Positions 7,995 to 16,209 of a DNA stretch of 16,650 nt are shown in pieces. A program made the position numbers and the translations under genes. The notes beneath the pieces were generated by a model. That model worked only from the letters and a program-made list of their open reading frames with translations. It was not told the origin of the DNA and did not search any database. The DNA is from a candidate division WOR-3 bacterium (GTDB taxonomy: Bacteria > Hydrothermota > Tepidihabitantia > Tepidihabitantales > DTDR01). Location: the NCBI GenBank assembly GCA_039801885.1, contig JBDRVN010000039.1:1-16650 (forward strand). The letters run 5' to 3'. Numbering within the stretch: the stretch's first letter is position 1; each line of letters opens with the position of its first letter.

Positions 7995-8067
7995 GGCGGC
8001 GTAGCTCAGTTGGCAGAGCAGGAGAATCATAATCTCCGTGTCAGGGGTTCGATTCCCTTCGCCGCCA
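7995..8067 (+). tRNA. tRNA with CAT anticodon, most likely elongator tRNA-Met; CCA not encoded
   Basis: Cloverleaf: acceptor GGCGGCG/CGCCGCC plus A73, D-stem GCTC/GAGC, anticodon arm GGAGA-ATCATAA-TCTCC, T-arm AGGGG-TTCGATT-CCCTT. G1-C72 is paired and the three-GC anticodon stem is absent, so it is not the initiator. G2-C71 and C3-G70 favour Met over Ile2. Confidence 0.93.
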
Positions 8068-10289: not shown

Positions 10290-11456
10290 TTAAAAAACCT
10301 CCAAGAAGAAGGTTCTTAAATATTCGGTTTCGGGCATGCTTAATAAAATTGGGTGGTCTGGTCCTTGGGTTGTACGGTCAATTATCCGGAAATTTCTTTT
10401 GGCATCTTCCGCAGCAGCATTTAAAGTATCTAAAAAATCTTGCCAATAAAAATGGTGAGAACAGGTAGAAGTGACCAAAATACCACCGGGCTTTAATAGT
10501 TTCATTGCCCACAAATTTATATCTTTATAACCTCTTAAAGCACCGCTTAACTCCTTTCTGCTTTTCAAAAAAGGCGGAGGGTCAAGAATAATTAAATCAA
10601 ATTTCATTTTATTCTTATATAAATTTCTTAATTCATTAAAAGCATTACCGACAATAAAGTGGCAAACTTTATCAACTTTATTTAATTCTGAATTCTTTTT
10701 TGCTAATCCAATCGCTTGCTGGTTACCATCAACTCCTAAAATTTCCTTGGCGCCTCCTAAGGCAGCATTGACTGAAAAACTACCAGTATAACAAAAGACA
10801 TCCAAAACCTTTTTATTTTTTGCCAATTCCCTTACTTTTTTTCTAGTTATTCGATGGTCAAAAAAATATCCAGTCTTCTGACCATTTTTTATATCCACAT
10901 AAAGTTTTACACCATTTTCACTAATCATTACTAAATCTTCTAATTCACCATAAACTAATCTATCATATCTTTCTAATTTTTCTAACTCTCTTAAACGGAA
11001 ATCGTTCTTCTCAAAGATTGATTTTACTGGAAAAATCTCTTTTAATGTTTGAAAAATTCTATCTTTTCTAACTTCCACACCATAAGAATAAATTTGAATA
11101 ACAAAATGATTTTGGTATTTATCAATTACTGTTCCGGTTAATAAATCACTTTCGCCGTAAACCAAACGAAAATCTTCTTCTTCCGGCAAAACAGCTTTCC
11201 GATATTCATAGGCTTTTAAAATTCTTTCTTTTATTAAAGGAGCATCAAAATCTTCGTCTTGAAAAGAGTAAATTCTTACTGCGATATTACTCTCAAAATT
11301 AAAAAGCCCATTACCAATAAACTCATCGTCTTCATAAACTGAGCAAATATCACCTTTATTTAAATTTTTCTCTTTTTTTATTATCTCATTTTTTAAAATC
11401 CAAAGATAATTTTTTATAACTTTTTTTCTTTTAACAAAAACTTTTTTAAAGGGCAT
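10290..11456 (-). CDS. RlmI/RlmK-family class I SAM-dependent rRNA methyltransferase
   Basis: RLVYGESD.L.G..IDKY, GQKTGYFFD.R, VLDVFCYTGSF, LDPPPF, catalytic Cys in TSTCS, and DHPILL..PETEYL. Confidence 0.9.
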   Translation of the reverse strand: MPFKKVFVKRKKVIKNYLWILKNEIIKKEKNLNKGDICSVYEDDEFIGNGLFNFESNIAVRIYSFQDEDFDAPLIKERILKAYEYRKAVLPEEEDFRLVYGESDLLTGTVIDKYQNHFVIQIYSYGVEVRKDRIFQTLKEIFPVKSIFEKNDFRLRELEKLERYDRLVYGELEDLVMISENGVKLYVDIKNGQKTGYFFDHRITRKKVRELAKNKKVLDVFCYTGSFSVNAALGGAKEILGVDGNQQAIGLAKKNSELNKVDKVCHFIVGNAFNELRNLYKNKMKFDLIILDPPPFLKSRKELSGALRGYKDINLWAMKLLKPGGILVTSTCSHHFYWQDFLDTLNAAAEDAKRNFRIIDRTTQGPDHPILLSMPETEYLRTFFLEVF

Positions 11457-12963
11457 CTTTTATAATAATATTATTTTCTTCATCAATTGTATAAATCAAA
11501 TCTTTTCCGTTTTTAGCTTTTGGTGCCAAAAGGATTGGCGGTGGATTACCTTCACCAAAAGGAGGCAATAAAGAAAGTAATTTTTTATTCTCCTCATTAA
11601 TTTCTAAAATTGCTTCATAAAAATTTCTTCTATTGAAATTTTCTTTTAAAGAGAAAATGTTGCTTGCATCTTTAATTACCTTTTCAATAAAATCATTTAA
11701 TTTTTCTTTAGTAATTGAAAAGCCGCAAGCCTTTTTATGCCCACCATAATCAATCAAATATTCTTTATTCAATTTCAAAATTTCTAAAATGCTATTCTTT
11801 TCGTCGCTCCGACATTCTCCAACATACCTTTCATCATTCACTCTGCCGATTACCATAGCCGGTAATTGATATTTCTCAATAAGTTTTCCAGCTACATAAC
11901 CTAAACACCCCAATGTTAACTCATCATCTTTGACAATAATAATTTTATCTGTCATCATCTTTCTCTCTTCAGCAATTTCCAAAGATTTCTTTGCTTCTTC
12001 TTGCCATTTTTTATAACGCCCTTGAAACTCTTGAAAAATCTCTACTGCTTCTTTTTCATTATCGGTAATAAAAAATCTTACTCCCTTATTACCCTCGCTA
12101 CTCGCAAAAATTGGTAAAAGATAAATAATAAAATTACTAACATTAAATTTTTTTCCTTCCAAGATATTTAAAATAGGTGCTTTAAAAATTGGATTAATAC
12201 TCTCAAAACTTTTTAATCCTAAAAAGACTATTGTTCGATTTTCCGAAATCAATGGTACCCGGTCGGCGATTGTTCCTAAAGCAGTGAAAAAAAATAGTTC
12301 TTTTTTACAAGAGTACAATTCTTCCAACGAAATATCCATCAATTCTTTTATTAAACCGATGAGAAATTTAAGAACTACCCCTACCCCTGATAATTCACGA
12401 AAAGGATAGGAAGAATCTTTCCGTTTCGGATTGATTACTGCTTTTGCGGAAGGTAATTTTTCTAATACTTCATGATGATCTATCACTATAACATCGACAT
12501 CAATTTTCTTGGCTTCTTCAATCTCCCAAAAATTGGTTGTTCCGGAATCGACCATAATCACTAAATTTAAACCTTCCTCTTTAAATAATTTTAAATCTTC
12601 TAAATTTAATCCATATTTCTTTTTATGCTTTACTGGAATATAAAAGGAAACCTTGGCTCTTAGATCTTTTAAGATATTATAAAATAAAACAGTCGCCGTA
12701 ATTCCGTCCAAATCTTCATGACCCCATATTAAAATCTTTTCTCCTTCTCTTATGGCTTTTTTTATCCTTTCTATTCCTTTTTCATAATCTGGTAAAATTT
12801 CTGGTGAAAATAACGATTTTAAAGAAGGATAAATAAATTTTTCTACATCTTCTTTTTTCCGATTGTTTCTTAAATAAAGAATTCTTAAAAAACCTTCTGG
12901 TAAACTAATACTTTCTTTTAAAATTCTAAATTCTTCTTCATCTATTGGTATCAATTCCCACAT
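11446..12963 (-). CDS. RecJ-like DHH/DHHA1 phosphoesterase (divergent, C-terminally truncated)
   Basis: GHEDLDG, VDSG, IDHH, INPK...YPF..LSGVGV, LGTIADRVPL..ENR, GGHKKACG and L.PFGEGNP.P. The protein ends about 25 aa after the last motif. Confidence 0.85.
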   Translation of the reverse strand: MWELIPIDEEEFRILKESISLPEGFLRILYLRNNRKKEDVEKFIYPSLKSLFSPEILPDYEKGIERIKKAIREGEKILIWGHEDLDGITATVLFYNILKDLRAKVSFYIPVKHKKKYGLNLEDLKLFKEEGLNLVIMVDSGTTNFWEIEEAKKIDVDVIVIDHHEVLEKLPSAKAVINPKRKDSSYPFRELSGVGVVLKFLIGLIKELMDISLEELYSCKKELFFFTALGTIADRVPLISENRTIVFLGLKSFESINPIFKAPILNILEGKKFNVSNFIIYLLPIFASSEGNKGVRFFITDNEKEAVEIFQEFQGRYKKWQEEAKKSLEIAEERKMMTDKIIIVKDDELTLGCLGYVAGKLIEKYQLPAMVIGRVNDERYVGECRSDEKNSILEILKLNKEYLIDYGGHKKACGFSITKEKLNDFIEKVIKDASNIFSLKENFNRRNFYEAILEINEENKKLLSLLPPFGEGNPPPILLAPKAKNGKDLIYTIDEENNIIIKDAL

Positions 12964-12969
12964 TTTAAT

Positions 12970-12997
12970 ATTATAATTATTTATTAATTTTTGTCAA
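12970..12997 (-). promoter_or_regulatory. Consensus sigma70 promoter TTGACA-N16-TATAAT for the recJ-like/rlmI operon (leaderless)
   Basis: -35 at 12997-12992 and -10 at 12975-12970, then 6 nt (ATTAAA) before the ATG at 12963; no SD. Confidence 0.8.
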
Positions 12998-13139
12998 AAT
13001 ATTTAATATTAAATGCTAAATTTTCAGCAATAGTAATTGAAAAATACAACATTTTTAGGAAAAAGACTATTTTACAATATTTTTAATATTTATAAATCAT
13101 TAAATTTCAATAACTTAGTTAAATAATTTGACAAAAAAT

Positions 13140-13156
13140 TTGGTATAAAAAATGCT
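13140..13156 (+). promoter_or_regulatory. Candidate sigma54 (-24/-12) promoter TTGGTATAAAAAATGCT
   Basis: GG (13142-13143) and GC (13154-13155) are separated by exactly 10 nt, similar to TGGCAC-N5-TTGCW. An IHF-like TTTCAATAACTTA lies at 13105-13117. Confidence 0.55.
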
Positions 13157-13165
13157 AACCCTTAA

Positions 13166-13238
13166 ATGGTCTCTCCGTGCTAATAGGATGCCAATTCTGA
13201 TTGGCGAAAGGGGCGGTTGTGAAAACGCCCCTTTTTTT
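13166..13238 (+). ncRNA. Candidate small RNA (~70 nt) of unknown family
   Basis: A GC-richer island in an AT-rich intergenic region, bounded by the sigma54-like promoter and a + strand terminator. It has an internal hairpin GCCAAT-TCTG-ATTGGC (13190-13205) and a 5' CTCTCC motif. Confidence 0.45.
13207..13238 (+). terminator. Intrinsic terminator, possibly bidirectional
   Basis: Stem GGGGCG (13210-13215)/CGCCCC (13226-13231) followed by T7 on the + strand. On the - strand the stem is followed by only T3, directly after the carboxypeptidase stop. Confidence 0.8.
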
Positions 13239-16209
13239 ATTTTATTATAATTATTTTATATTTTTCTTTTTCAGTTTTTATAAAATAGACACCTTTAGAA
13301 AGTTTGCTTATTATTTTCCCTTTGTTTTTTAATTCGTTTATCCTCTTTCCGCTAATGTCATAAATGGTTATTTTTGGTTGTTGGAAAAGATAAATTGAAT
13401 TGCTCTTTAAAATAGTGGGAAATTCTTTTTTATTATTTAATCTTTTTTGAGAAATTTCATATATTACGCTTGGTAAAGGTGGACCGGTAATAAACTTAAT
13501 TGCCCTTCTTGGTTGAATTTGTGCTGATGCCTGATGATAACTACCATTATATAAAGCACATATTCCAATCGTATTCGTCTGGTCTTCAATACCGACCGTA
13601 TTTGATTGGTAATAATTGGCTGTTAGATATTGGAATTTTATCACATTATCACCAGTGGGAGTTTGAACTGTGGTATCATAGATAATTATCTCCAACTTAT
13701 CCCAAGATGTTCTTGGATTATAATAATGAACACTATCCCATTCTAAAATCATCCGGTGATTTAATGTATCATTATAAAACCAAATGCCATTACCATAAGG
13801 TGGATATAAATCATCCCAATTAACACAGATCATCGCACTCGGATTTGTTGAACTTGGATCAGGCAAAGATTGATTGTTATAACTGGTTAAAGTTGTCCTT
13901 ATCGGACTTATCCACCCATTACCACAAACTGATAAAGAATCTCGATACCTTACTCCATAATAATAAATTGGAAATGGCAAAGGAATCCTAATCGTTTGGT
14001 CATCTTGAGTAATAGATAATCTCATACCAAGATTTCTTATTTCCACCCATTCAAAAGGCTCTGTCTGTTGATAAAAGGTATCAACATCGTCATAGGCATA
14101 ATATAAAGGCTCAGGTTGGCGATTATCAGGTATTGGGTCGGTTATCGTCAATTCACCAATGACTAAATTAAATCTTAAAGAATCGGTATAGTTTGAACCA
14201 TAAAGATAAAGTTGGAAATTAGCAATATGACCTCTGGGTGTTTGAGAAGAAGCATAAATAAGAAATCTGTCATTTTCATTATTTCTTAAAGAATCTGGCG
14301 GAATATCGCCAAAACTTCCGATTGAATCTAAAATAGTAATGTACCGGTCGTTGGTTTTTAATATTCCAATAATGTTATTAGCCGAGGTTCTGCCGATATT
14401 TCTCAGATTAATAATCGAAAAACAAGTCTCTCCGGGATCAATTCTTCCATTATTATTTCCTAAAGAATCATAAATTACAATCTGCTGAATTGTTAATACT
14501 GGCACATTAGATACAATTGCTTCAATAGCATCCAAATCGTAACCACCTGTCGGTCCATTAACACCATATCCTTGGTCAATAATTTTTATATAACGGCAAT
14601 AAGAAACTCCTGCTCTTGATAAATCAAAATAAGAATTTCCGGTATCAACGCCGCAAAAATACCAAGGTCCATTCCAGTTATTACTTACATAAACACTACA
14701 TCCTTCCGGGTCAATAGTATCTTCAATAACTATAAAATCAATACCGGGTCCATTAATAATCGGGTATTGCATATCATAAACAACCCATCCCTTAACTCCT
14801 AAAGACAATCTTTTGTTATTCTCTCTACCTAAAACAAAAGATGGAAAAGTATAGTTGATATAATTGGGCTGATCATTAATTATAGCAAAAACATTTTTGT
14901 AAGCAAAGATTGGTTGGATAGTATCTCTTACTAATGGAATGTCAACAAAAATATAAGTATCGGGAGGAACATAAATATTATCAATTATTTTTTCTTGATA
15001 ACCATTAGCGAAAATTCTTAAAGAATATGTCCCTTCAGAACAATAACGGAAAAAGTATCCGCAGGTATCACTATAAATTGGTGAATAAGGAGGTTGTAGT
15101 TCAATAATTGCTTTTATTGGTTCATTGGTTAATGAATCGTAAACTATTCCTCTTATTCCCCAAGCGGTTCTTTTTAACATTTCCATATTGGCACTTAGAT
15201 TTGCCCGACAAATAGTATCAATCTGAGTTGTATCTGGCACATGGGGAGAACATAATTCAATTGCTAAGCATAAAGCACCTTCGGCACCATAACCAAAATC
15301 AGAAGAAGTTCCTCTTGCTTCATATAAACCCCGAGCAATCTGAAAAGCAGGATAACCGGTATAAAAACTGTATCTTTGGGTTAAAAAGAAATGAAAAATA
15401 CTGTCATAAGTAGCAGCAGTAGTATAAGACCAAGGCCACATTGCTGCTGTTGTTCCGGAATGATAGGTAATATAAAGAACAAAGGGCGCTCTTTGGAAGA
15501 AATTTCTTATTGCCCTAATTTCTGGTTGAGAAAAAGGAGCAGGTGTATCCTGCCACCAAGCAAAACCATAATCTCTATTTAAATCTTCGCCATTCGCATT
15601 ATATCTTGTTCGCGCAACCATTCCATCAGGATTAACAATCGGAATTACCCAGATTTCTCTTGTATTAACCAAATGGGTTACTAATGGGTTGGCTCCATAA
15701 TTAGAAAGTAAATATTTTACTAAATAAAGACAAACTTCGGCACCAATATTCTCATTTCCGTGGGTTGTTCCATCCCAAACAATTCTTGGCCGGTGCTCAT
15801 CACTACCGGCATTTTGAGAAATCTTCATCGCCAAAATTAATCGATTTTGAACCGAATAGCCAATCGTATCTAATCTTACTAAATCAGGATTATTTTGAGC
15901 AATAATATTAAAAGTATCAACTATTTCTTGATAAGAGTGGAATCTACCAAAATTATCACCCGGAGCCATCCTTTGATGATAATCTAACATATCTTCAATT
16001 AGAATTTCATAAGAATATTTATTTTTAATAGGTAAAAATTTCTCTTCGTCAATCGCACCAATAATGTAATTTTCGCTAGCCTCGTAAATATAAAAGCCTT
16101 CTTTTAAAAGAAAAGGAATTTCCTCTTTTGAAACATTACTTATCTTTATCAATATCTCTTTAGAAAAGATTAAAGAAATAAAAAGAATTAAGAAAAGAAA
16201 TTTTTTCAT
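13237..16209 (-). CDS. Secreted multidomain M14 zinc carboxypeptidase with a T9SS-like C-terminal tail
   Basis: Signal peptide and pro-region; Zn ligands HGNE and YHS; NPDG, R.N...DLNRD, GTSSD and catalytic Glu in AIEL. These are followed by a carboxypeptidase-regulatory-like domain (GIRGIVYDSLTNEPI), accessory beta-rich domains (DSLGNNNGRIDPGE; YYAYDD..FEWVEI) and the tail IYDISGK...KGVYFIK...KIIIIK. AGGAGG SD. Confidence 0.9.
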   Translation of the reverse strand: MKKFLFLILFISLIFSKEILIKISNVSKEEIPFLLKEGFYIYEASENYIIGAIDEEKFLPIKNKYSYEILIEDMLDYHQRMAPGDNFGRFHSYQEIVDTFNIIAQNNPDLVRLDTIGYSVQNRLILAMKISQNAGSDEHRPRIVWDGTTHGNENIGAEVCLYLVKYLLSNYGANPLVTHLVNTREIWVIPIVNPDGMVARTRYNANGEDLNRDYGFAWWQDTPAPFSQPEIRAIRNFFQRAPFVLYITYHSGTTAAMWPWSYTTAATYDSIFHFFLTQRYSFYTGYPAFQIARGLYEARGTSSDFGYGAEGALCLAIELCSPHVPDTTQIDTICRANLSANMEMLKRTAWGIRGIVYDSLTNEPIKAIIELQPPYSPIYSDTCGYFFRYCSEGTYSLRIFANGYQEKIIDNIYVPPDTYIFVDIPLVRDTIQPIFAYKNVFAIINDQPNYINYTFPSFVLGRENNKRLSLGVKGWVVYDMQYPIINGPGIDFIVIEDTIDPEGCSVYVSNNWNGPWYFCGVDTGNSYFDLSRAGVSYCRYIKIIDQGYGVNGPTGGYDLDAIEAIVSNVPVLTIQQIVIYDSLGNNNGRIDPGETCFSIINLRNIGRTSANNIIGILKTNDRYITILDSIGSFGDIPPDSLRNNENDRFLIYASSQTPRGHIANFQLYLYGSNYTDSLRFNLVIGELTITDPIPDNRQPEPLYYAYDDVDTFYQQTEPFEWVEIRNLGMRLSITQDDQTIRIPLPFPIYYYGVRYRDSLSVCGNGWISPIRTTLTSYNNQSLPDPSSTNPSAMICVNWDDLYPPYGNGIWFYNDTLNHRMILEWDSVHYYNPRTSWDKLEIIIYDTTVQTPTGDNVIKFQYLTANYYQSNTVGIEDQTNTIGICALYNGSYHQASAQIQPRRAIKFITGPPLPSVIYEISQKRLNNKKEFPTILKSNSIYLFQQPKITIYDISGKRINELKNKGKIISKLSKGVYFIKTEKEKYKIIIIK
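13513..13649. repeat. Direct repeat copy 1 (partner 16514-16650)
   Basis: By manual alignment at offset 3001, 135 of 137 nt are identical. 13533-13649 is identical to 16534-16650. Confidence 0.9.

Follow-up and report, generated by a model that had tools for sequence, protein, structure and literature searches.

Qrr1-5 of Vibrio are short trans-acting small RNAs (sRNAs) that are transcribed from sigma-54 promoters under the bacterial enhancer-binding protein (bEBP) LuxO (10.1101/2021.07.01.450815). Here we describe a locus of this kind on contig JBDRVN010000039.1 of a candidate division WOR-3 bacterium (16,650 nucleotides, hereafter the window; contig C39 of genome G000), where positions 13167-13238 of the + strand are predicted to encode an sRNA of ~72 nucleotides (nt) with a pilin mRNA as its target. 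The likeness to Qrr lies in the combination of a sigma-54 promoter and a bEBP with a short trans-acting sRNA, in the number of copies (one to several; genome G007 has two), and in the position of a family member beside the activator gene, as seen in G007 and at the loci of family f2 described below. In Vibrio, qrr1 adjoins luxO. The window sRNA differs from Qrr in having no sequence or structure match in Rfam and no detectable Hfq gene in its genome, in its target, which for Qrr are quorum-sensing regulators, and in its bipartite pairing over 26 nt.

Other relatives in function are found among the pilus regulators. In Acinetobacter baumannii, the trans-encoded sRNA Arp pairs with the mRNA of the major pilin (pilA) and represses type IV pilus functions, and the abstract mentions no sigma-54 control (PMC12338739). 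The two RNAs are unrelated in sequence and belong to different lineages; moreover, the predicted pairing of the window sRNA involves the 5′ end and codons 20-25 of the mRNA, with the ribosome-binding site left unpaired. The antisense RNA PilR of Synechocystis lowers expression of the pilin gene pilA11 by base pairing (PMC5924778), but is cis-encoded opposite its target, whereas the window sRNA lies on another contig than its target and matches two separate short sites. Dependence on sigma-54 together with an NtrC-type activator is described for the sRNAs NrsZ of Pseudomonas, which affects motility, and GlnZ of Enterobacteriaceae (PMC9731577). Unlike these, the window sRNA is a stand-alone gene with its own promoter and terminator, and the targets differ. 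GlnZ is processed from the 3′ untranslated region (UTR) of an mRNA and NrsZ from a longer precursor. Pairing well downstream of the start codon is shared with the enterobacterial pair MicC-ompD, in which the sRNA binds far into the coding sequence (~codons 20-26) and, with the help of Hfq and RNase E, triggers decay while initiation remains unblocked; what sets the window sRNA apart is an additional site at the very start of the mRNA, and no Hfq gene was found in its genome. A literature search yielded no sRNA that is both sigma-54 dependent and pilin-controlling, and none from this lineage. We therefore place the window sRNA in a new family of a known kind, for which neither an Rfam Qrr match nor Hfq dependence was found; its unusual features are the pairing at two sites and the visible co-evolution with synonymous codons.

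We consider it likely that 13167-13238 (+) encodes a trans-acting, base-pairing sRNA that is driven by sigma-54 and acts on the pilin mRNA via two antisense blocks. A + strand sRNA with a sigma-54 promoter had been proposed in a first-pass annotation of the window, whose listed features (inverted repeat, integration host factor (IHF)-like box, -24/-12 element, hairpin and terminator stem) were all found where it had placed them; the conservation described in the following supports this proposal. The promoter TGGTAT-AAAAA-ATGCT (TGGTATAAAAAATGCT, 13141-13156, +) carries GG at 13142-13143 and GC at 13154-13155, separated by exactly the 10 nt that had been noted, and the 5′ end of the RNA is predicted 12 nt past the C in the -12 GC doublet. 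The consensus for such promoters is TGGCAC-N5-TTGCW, with 11 specified positions. At 10/10 homologous loci, TGG-N9-TG(C/T) stands on the same strand 11-24 nt before GGTCTCT, with a spacer between promoter 16-mer and GGTCTCT that varies in sequence as well as in length, and four of these loci (G008, G012, G018 and G007a) match the consensus at 11/11 positions. An extended -10 sigma-70 promoter (TGgTATAAA) was rejected as a reading of the same site: G003 and others read CATAAA, in G003 a poor sigma-70 -10 element, or CACG, while the GG/GC spacing is kept.

At the other end of the locus, an intrinsic terminator (13210-13238, +) consists of the stem GGGGCG/CGCCCC (13210-13231) with a 10-nt loop and a U7 tail (13232-13238). 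A conserved RNA 5′ end followed by an intrinsic terminator succeeds the promoter at 10/10 loci, and in an alignment of six sequences 60/60 cells of the terminator stem pair, with 4/10 pairs changed on both sides. Our terminator scan did not list the hairpin, presumably because its loop exceeds the 3-8 nt limit of the scan. The orientation is indicated by the T-runs, which measure 7, 6, 7, 4, 6 and 7 on the + strand of the first six homologs and 3, 3, 3, 4, 4 and 7 on the - strand; in the window itself T7 at 13232-13238 faces a mere TTT, as the first-pass annotation had stated. The fold z-score is likewise better on the + strand (-3.42, 0/200 shuffles as good) than on the - strand (-2.55, 4/200), and the G-U wobble pairs of hairpin 1 are possible only on the + strand. 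This hairpin exists in a long form (13179-13205, +), in which 89% of the cells pair, and in a short form GCCAAU-UCUG-AUUGGC (13190-13205, +). Conservation of the latter had been suggested as a check in relatives together with that of the promoter spacing, which was indeed kept at all ten loci; the short form turned out to be only an alternative. In the homologs of family f4 a hairpin occupies the same place with other arms (GUGCC/GGCAC); the loop motif AAUUCUG is conserved. A small open reading frame (ORF), ATG-GTC-TCT-CCG-TGC-TAA, that can be read in G000 was rejected on account of indels and missing start codons in the relatives: since an indel of 0-2 nt between the conserved blocks breaks any frame, a conserved ORF is excluded. 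Promoter, stem covariation, + strand U-runs and wobbles, convergent genes and lack of an ORF together lead us to a stand-alone + strand RNA gene.

The possibility that there is no sRNA at all, that the stem-loop only terminates the neighboring carboxypeptidase gene and that GG-N10-GC is a chance match in an AT-rich spacer, derives from the arrangement of the locus. Gene calls bear out that both flanking genes lie on the - strand; the right neighbor, an M14 carboxypeptidase gene with a Por_Secre_tail, that is, a type IX secretion system (T9SS) sorting tail (13237-16209, -), is convergent, and its stop codon overlaps the U-tail of the sRNA. The hairpin begins 6 nt after this stop codon and is preceded by an A-run on the + strand, and the terminator probably ends the carboxypeptidase gene as well; in addition, promoter-like matches in G000 are only about twice as frequent as in simulations. 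The downstream genes are convergent in this genus and in G018. However, a terminator would not account for the ~45 nt 3′ of the promoter, which are near-invariant in the alignment while the flanks diverge, nor for a promoter kept at 10/10 loci with a perfect consensus in four, for the double complementarity of the conserved block to one mRNA with compensatory changes, or for the occurrence of the element in other contexts in G007. We regard this explanation as extremely improbable.

Ten loci, distributed over 9 related genomes that represent three families (f1, f4 and f3), carry the element. BLAST detected it in the congeners G003, G004 and G005, and a covariance model (R1), built from four sequences and searched against 66 genomes of the order, scored 72-100 bits in 5 genomes of the genus, thereby adding G002 (72.5 bits), and 27.3 bits for a divergent copy in G018, a member of another family. 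The pattern GGTCTCTC-N1-2-GTGCTRA matched 8/272 genomes of the phylum, all in f1 and f4: G000, 4/5 congeners (the missed one is 68% complete) and 3/4 f4 genomes; the reversed-pattern control gave 2 matches. A promoter-plus-seed pattern, whose controls gave 3 matches in the phylum search, added two loci in G007 (f3), and its other matches (G011, G015, G187, G225, G235 and many GC-rich f2 genomes) were discarded, as the rest of the element is missing there. From a metagenome scan we obtained 3 further contigs with a G002-like copy and the same promoter, which add no independent lineage. The first-pass view that the RNA is undescribed agrees with Rfam: the whole window gave only a tRNA at the gathering score, 12900-13350 gave only sub-threshold matches at E up to 10, mostly overlapping the terminator region and without Qrr among them, and the ten related loci gave no match at E up to 0.1. 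On this comparative evidence, which we consider decisive, the locus is confirmed as a real gene, and the same comparison supports its promoter class, its terminator and the bipartite complementarity with co-variation described next. As a side observation, the two copies of G007 are paralogous sigma-54 driven sRNA candidates (L097 on G007:C1, -; L125/L230 on G007:C69, +) that share the seed GGGUCUCUCU and differ in their bodies; one of them adjoins the bEBP ortholog.

The target emerged from the 5′ end of the predicted RNA. Block 1, UGGUCUCUCC (RNA nt 1-10; 13167-13176, +), is the exact complement of GGAGAGACCA, the first 10 nt of a pilin 5′ UTR at G000:C2:63468-63477, and block 2, GUGCUAAUAGGAUGCC (RNA nt 11-26; 13177-13192, +), pairs 16/16 with GGTATCCTATTAGCAC, codons 20-25 of the same pilin gene (G000:C2:63572-63587). 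This type IV pilin-like gene (G000:C2:63515-64150) is monocistronic and encodes 211 amino acids (aa) with a prepilin N-terminal methylation (N_methyl) domain. The block 1 site starts 7 nt after the -10 element of a TTGACT-16-TATAAT promoter (11/12) and thus at the predicted first nucleotide of the pilin mRNA. The sequence GGAGAGACC occurs five times in the genome, namely as the antisense of the sRNA itself, three times inside ORFs and once intergenically in sense orientation, at the start of the pilin 5′ UTR, and a 9-mer scan of the regions from -120 to +30 gave the pilin 5′ UTR as the only match of the seed. Among the ~3.1 million 16-mers on both strands of the 1,555,453-base genome, block 2 pairs 16/16 only with its own antisense and the pilin site. 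Consequently, two independent genome-wide searches converge on one mRNA. The target prediction suggested at the outset was also run as a generic duplex scan (see below), which gave no signal. The corresponding 9-mer scan with GAGAGACCM in G012, G015, G011, G003 and G001 returned too many matches to be of use.

Both blocks are kept in 6/6 cognate pairs of sRNA and pilin mRNA, with energies of -18.2 to -22.0 kcal/mol for block 1 and -27.5 to -30.1 kcal/mol for block 2, and among the pilin orthologs, those of G002, G004, G005 and one more species (L156) retain the block 1 site. Moreover, the partners change in concert. The block 1 pair UGGUCUCUCC/GGAGAGACCA of the genus becomes UAGGGUCUCUCA/UGAGAGACCCUA in f4 and GGGUCUCUCU/AGAGAGACCC in f3, with compensatory exchanges from U-A to G-C and from C-G (own genus) to A-U (f4) or U-A (f3). 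In block 2, a G-C pair is replaced by A-U in G002, where a G to A change in the sRNA meets a synonymous CTA to TTA change in the mRNA, and a U-A pair by G-C in f4 (sRNA U to G, mRNA CTA to CTC); the remaining differences are wobble-compatible. The encoded N-terminal peptide FTLIELLVVILIIGILLAL is identical in genomes in which no sRNA was found, and other synonymous codons are used there. Co-variation of the sRNA with synonymous codons at unchanged amino-acid sequence is clean evidence of selection on RNA pairing. In family f5, the pilin ortholog examined has no block 1 site, and pattern searches did not find the sRNA.

Two rival explanations of the conserved block can be weighed against this pairing. 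The first-pass annotation had taken the CU-rich 5′ end as an anti-Shine-Dalgarno (SD) seed that would block several mRNAs, such as those of the SBBP genes, one of which lies far from the sRNA locus at 146-1348. UCUCC is indeed able to pair with GGAGA-type SD sequences, and, by eye, the GGUCUCUC of the related f2 RNA could pair with 6 nt overlapping the pilin SD (AAAGAGAGGAGG). Yet a scan for duplexes of the 26-nt 5′ end with 1369 start regions gave neither a best energy nor a 1% tail better than those of five shuffled seeds, which leaves the proposed action on the SBBP genes without a signal; the 9-mer scan singled out the pilin 5′ UTR alone, the exact complement of this very 5′ end, and the bases flanking the seed co-vary with the pilin UTR and not with SD sequences. 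An anti-SD function of this type is accordingly very improbable. Alternatively, the conserved core might be no RNA gene but a - strand sigma-54 promoter, TGGCAT-CCTAT-TAGCA (13193-13178), for the left neighbor, a RecJ-like DHH/DHHA1 nuclease gene (11446-12963, -). The motif matches 9/11 consensus positions with correct GG-N10-GC spacing, which by eye is kept in 7/10 homologs including G008 and G018; in G012, however, the spacing is N9, both G007 copies lack the motif, and the -12 reads TAGCA at all loci. The RecJ-like gene already possesses a sigma-70 type promoter, TTGACA-16-TATAAT (12970-12997, -), which matches at 12/12 positions and lies outside the sRNA gene. Furthermore, the invariant GGAGAGACC would have to lie between -12 and +1, a stretch in which sigma-54 promoters are not known to show conservation. 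Since block 2 has to match the pilin codons GGC-ATC-CTA-TTA-GCA, the motif can be understood as their mirror image, and we consider a - strand promoter highly improbable. It illustrates that promoter scans can mislead, as an opposite-strand sigma-54-like site here merely mirrors pilin codons.

For a sigma-54 driven sRNA acting on the pilin mRNA, the required machinery appears to be present. As a check of the original proposal, we searched G000 for its protein components and found rpoN (174 bits), two bEBPs with GAFTGA and GSFTGA motifs, and two proteins of the HU/IHF family whose best-scoring models are IHF alpha and beta, with scores under the NCBIfam cut-offs. The bEBP on contig C19 has the architecture GAF-AAA+-HTH; in the one on C48 (G000:C48:5471-7042), an unassigned N-terminal domain that is REC-like by eye precedes AAA+-HTH. 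Orthologs of this N-terminal domain occur in 5/5 genomes of f1, 2/2 of f3, 4/4 of f4 and 39/44 of f2, and in 0/10 of f5, the family that also lacks the sRNA. In G007, 185 nt separate the C48 bEBP ortholog from the start of one sRNA copy downstream of it. By this association alone, the C48 bEBP ortholog is probably the activator and our best candidate.

Of the proposed layout of enhancer, IHF site and promoter, the middle part is conserved and the first only partially so. The IHF-like box TTTCAATAACTTA (13105-13117) lies between candidate enhancer and promoter. An IHF site has the consensus WATCAA-N4-TTR. The exact sequence AATAACTT stands 22-32 nt upstream of the -24 element at 6/10 loci, and one-mismatch variants occur in G005 (AATAATTT) and G007b (AACAACTT), which brings the range over all eight to 17-32 nt; the box is inverted in G007a, and G018 carries AATGATTT. 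The candidate enhancer (upstream activating sequence, UAS) is the inverted repeat TGCT-N8-AGCA (13014-13029), ~127 nt upstream of the -24 element. The genus keeps the left half, ATTAAATGCYRAATTT; in G003 and G005 the right half has degenerated, and the repeat is intact in only some congeners. The corresponding position in the f4 homologs is occupied by two clear tandem dyads, GCCAAAAAWWTTGGCA, spaced 21 bp apart. We also looked for an enhancer regulon in G000 and rejected it: the regions upstream of genes show no enrichment of the palindromes TGCCAA-N-TTGGCA and TGCYAAA...TTTRGCA. Separately, dyads of the f4 type precede a second sigma-54 promoter at L217 (G008:C19) and L226 (G018:C3), downstream of which lie a structured leader of ~110 nt and a gene for a 286-aa membrane protein without Pfam family, the second member of the f4 regulon; its G000 ortholog (C1:44536-45348) has no sigma-54 promoter.

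Several observations weigh against the sRNA and target proposed here. The 5′ end, the size and the expression of the RNA are predictions. The promoter of G000 matches, by our count, only 8/11 specified positions and is one of the two weakest among the ten, and G004 has GT in place of the GC found as -12 doublet at the nine other loci. Matches to TGG[CT]A[CT]-N5-[AT]TGC[AT] number 17 in G000 and 6-11 in five Markov simulations, barely above background, and for this reason the motif is weak evidence within G000 alone. On the side of the target, only block 1 matches the pilin examined in G007, a pilin ortholog was not found in G012, and contig ends truncate the orthologs in G003 and G015; the null result of the generic duplex scan also belongs here. 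In the minimum free energy fold, nt 4-8 of the sRNA are open (unpaired with P of at least 0.97) and a weak helix of 2 bp joins nt 2-3 to nt 9-10. Block 2 overlaps hairpin 1, so that its pairing requires opening of the hairpin. That the target encodes the major pilin is suggested only by the N_methyl domain, a strong promoter and a terminator of its own, and the PilB- and PilT-type ATPases encoded in the genome. As for the proteins, the activator ortholog is present in 39/44 genomes of f2, a family in which this form of the sRNA is lacking, and a search of G000 (91% complete) gave no Hfq (PF17209). For RNase III (PF14622), 6/6 f1 and 4/4 f4 genomes gave no match in a search that also missed the Thermus and Deinococcus controls, and a typed signature pattern for it gave no match. 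Of other ribonucleases, a homolog of RNase E/G and a protein resembling RNase Y are encoded in G000; no RNase J was found there. A survey of RNase III (PF14622) over 25 genomes of the order gave hits only in the two f3 genomes, to short proteins of 157-175 aa, and none in the other 23, near-complete ones included.

For transcription itself, the acting activator and the sign of regulation, we infer the following course of events. An enhancer-binding protein bound upstream, helped by a bend at the IHF-like box, would activate sigma-54 RNA polymerase at the -24/-12 promoter (13141-13156), and transcription would end at the intrinsic terminator (13210-13238). Block 1 (nt 1-10) of the sRNA would then bind the outermost 10 nt of the pilin 5′ UTR, and block 2 (nt 11-26) codons 20-25. 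As only 0-1 nt separate the two contiguous blocks on the sRNA, a single nicked helix of 26-29 bp would unite both mRNA sites, with SD and start codon in a loop of ~100 nt between these sites. When the activator is on, the most likely outcome would be a fall in pilin synthesis, via mRNA decay or blocked translation. We favor repression as the rather probable sign, as pairing deep in the coding region is linked to induced decay in the MicC-ompD case. The same sRNA and target could also be connected with the opposite sign, if pairing at the 5′ end shielded the pilin mRNA from 5′-end-dependent nucleases and raised pilin levels. In favor of this, block 1 overlies what is predicted to be the very start of the mRNA, G000 has a gene for an RNase E/G homolog, and sigma-54 commonly acts positively on pilin genes elsewhere. 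This must be set against the longer and stronger block 2 inside the coding sequence, where such pairing promotes decay, as in MicC-ompD, and against the block 1 site of f4, which by eye seems to lie ~9 nt inside the UTR and not at its end. Stabilization is thus an unlikely, though not a negligible, alternative.

With either sign, the sRNA most likely controls pilus production in this uncultured hot-spring bacterium. We know of no riboregulator proposed earlier for this uncultured, AT-rich and Hfq-less lineage, in which it would be the first, and it comes with an unusually complete and testable circuit of activator, sigma-54 promoter, sRNA and one specific target. Elsewhere, sigma-54 usually acts directly on pilin promoters; the locus would add post-transcriptional control of type IV pilin by a sigma-54 dependent sRNA. 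Should the pairing constrain the synonymous codons of the invariant N-terminal helix of the pilin, codon choice there would visibly be shaped by an sRNA.

A longer RNA in family f2 may bear on the origin of this sRNA. We fetched 13 f2 loci and recovered the bEBP ORF in 10 of them (L231-L238, L242 and L243), where a sigma-54-like promoter with near-perfect -24/-12 elements and a UAS repeat resembling CTGCCGTATTTTGC lies ~120-225 nt downstream of the C48-type bEBP ortholog. Motif-based extraction on 5 of these loci gave an RNA of ~170 nt with a terminator in 4, in which GAGGU(U)CUCUC is followed 8-9 nt later by AGGAUGUCG; GGUCUCUC and AGGAUG(U/C)C are common to this RNA and the window sRNA. It has no Rfam match and is probably the ancestral form of the sRNA family. 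In two f2 genomes of one genus the RNA has matches of 9-10 nt to pilin codons at +54 and +97, which is weak evidence, and the duplex energies of the long f2 RNAs with pilin mRNAs were no better than those of shuffles in 2/3 cases. We put forward only tentatively, and with some doubt, a conserved order-wide module of a bEBP, an adjacent sigma-54 driven sRNA and the major pilin mRNA, a split antisense clamp that would constrain synonymous codons; in the genus of the window, the sRNA gene would have moved away from the activator gene and shrunk, with the seed now forming its 5′ end. In genomes of other families that lack this sRNA, the pilin orthologs L158-L160 have 5′ UTRs of ~120 nt with a different conserved motif in common, AGCAGAGAA(A/G)(A)TGCGAT, on which some other regulator might act.

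Two further good sigma-54 promoter candidates were noted in G000, an assembly of 1.56 Mb in 70 contigs with 30.9% G+C. One, TGGCACAAAAAATGCT (G000:C19:5928, +), immediately follows a Ser/Thr kinase (PEGA) gene; the GAF-type bEBP is encoded upstream of it, and a Kelch-repeat gene comes downstream. The other, TGGCAAAGTTTTTGCA (G000:C18:4821, +), precedes a PAS histidine kinase gene and is accompanied by a TAAGTCATTGAAATT box resembling the one upstream of the sRNA. In the window, a tRNA-Met (CAT) gene at 7995-8067 (+) is the sole match to Rfam or ARAGORN. Finally, the contigs of four congeners (L002, L004, L003 and L026) end ~100-580 nt past the sRNA, probably inside the T9SS-tail gene, and our guess is that the T9SS C-terminal domain is repeated and breaks the assemblies.

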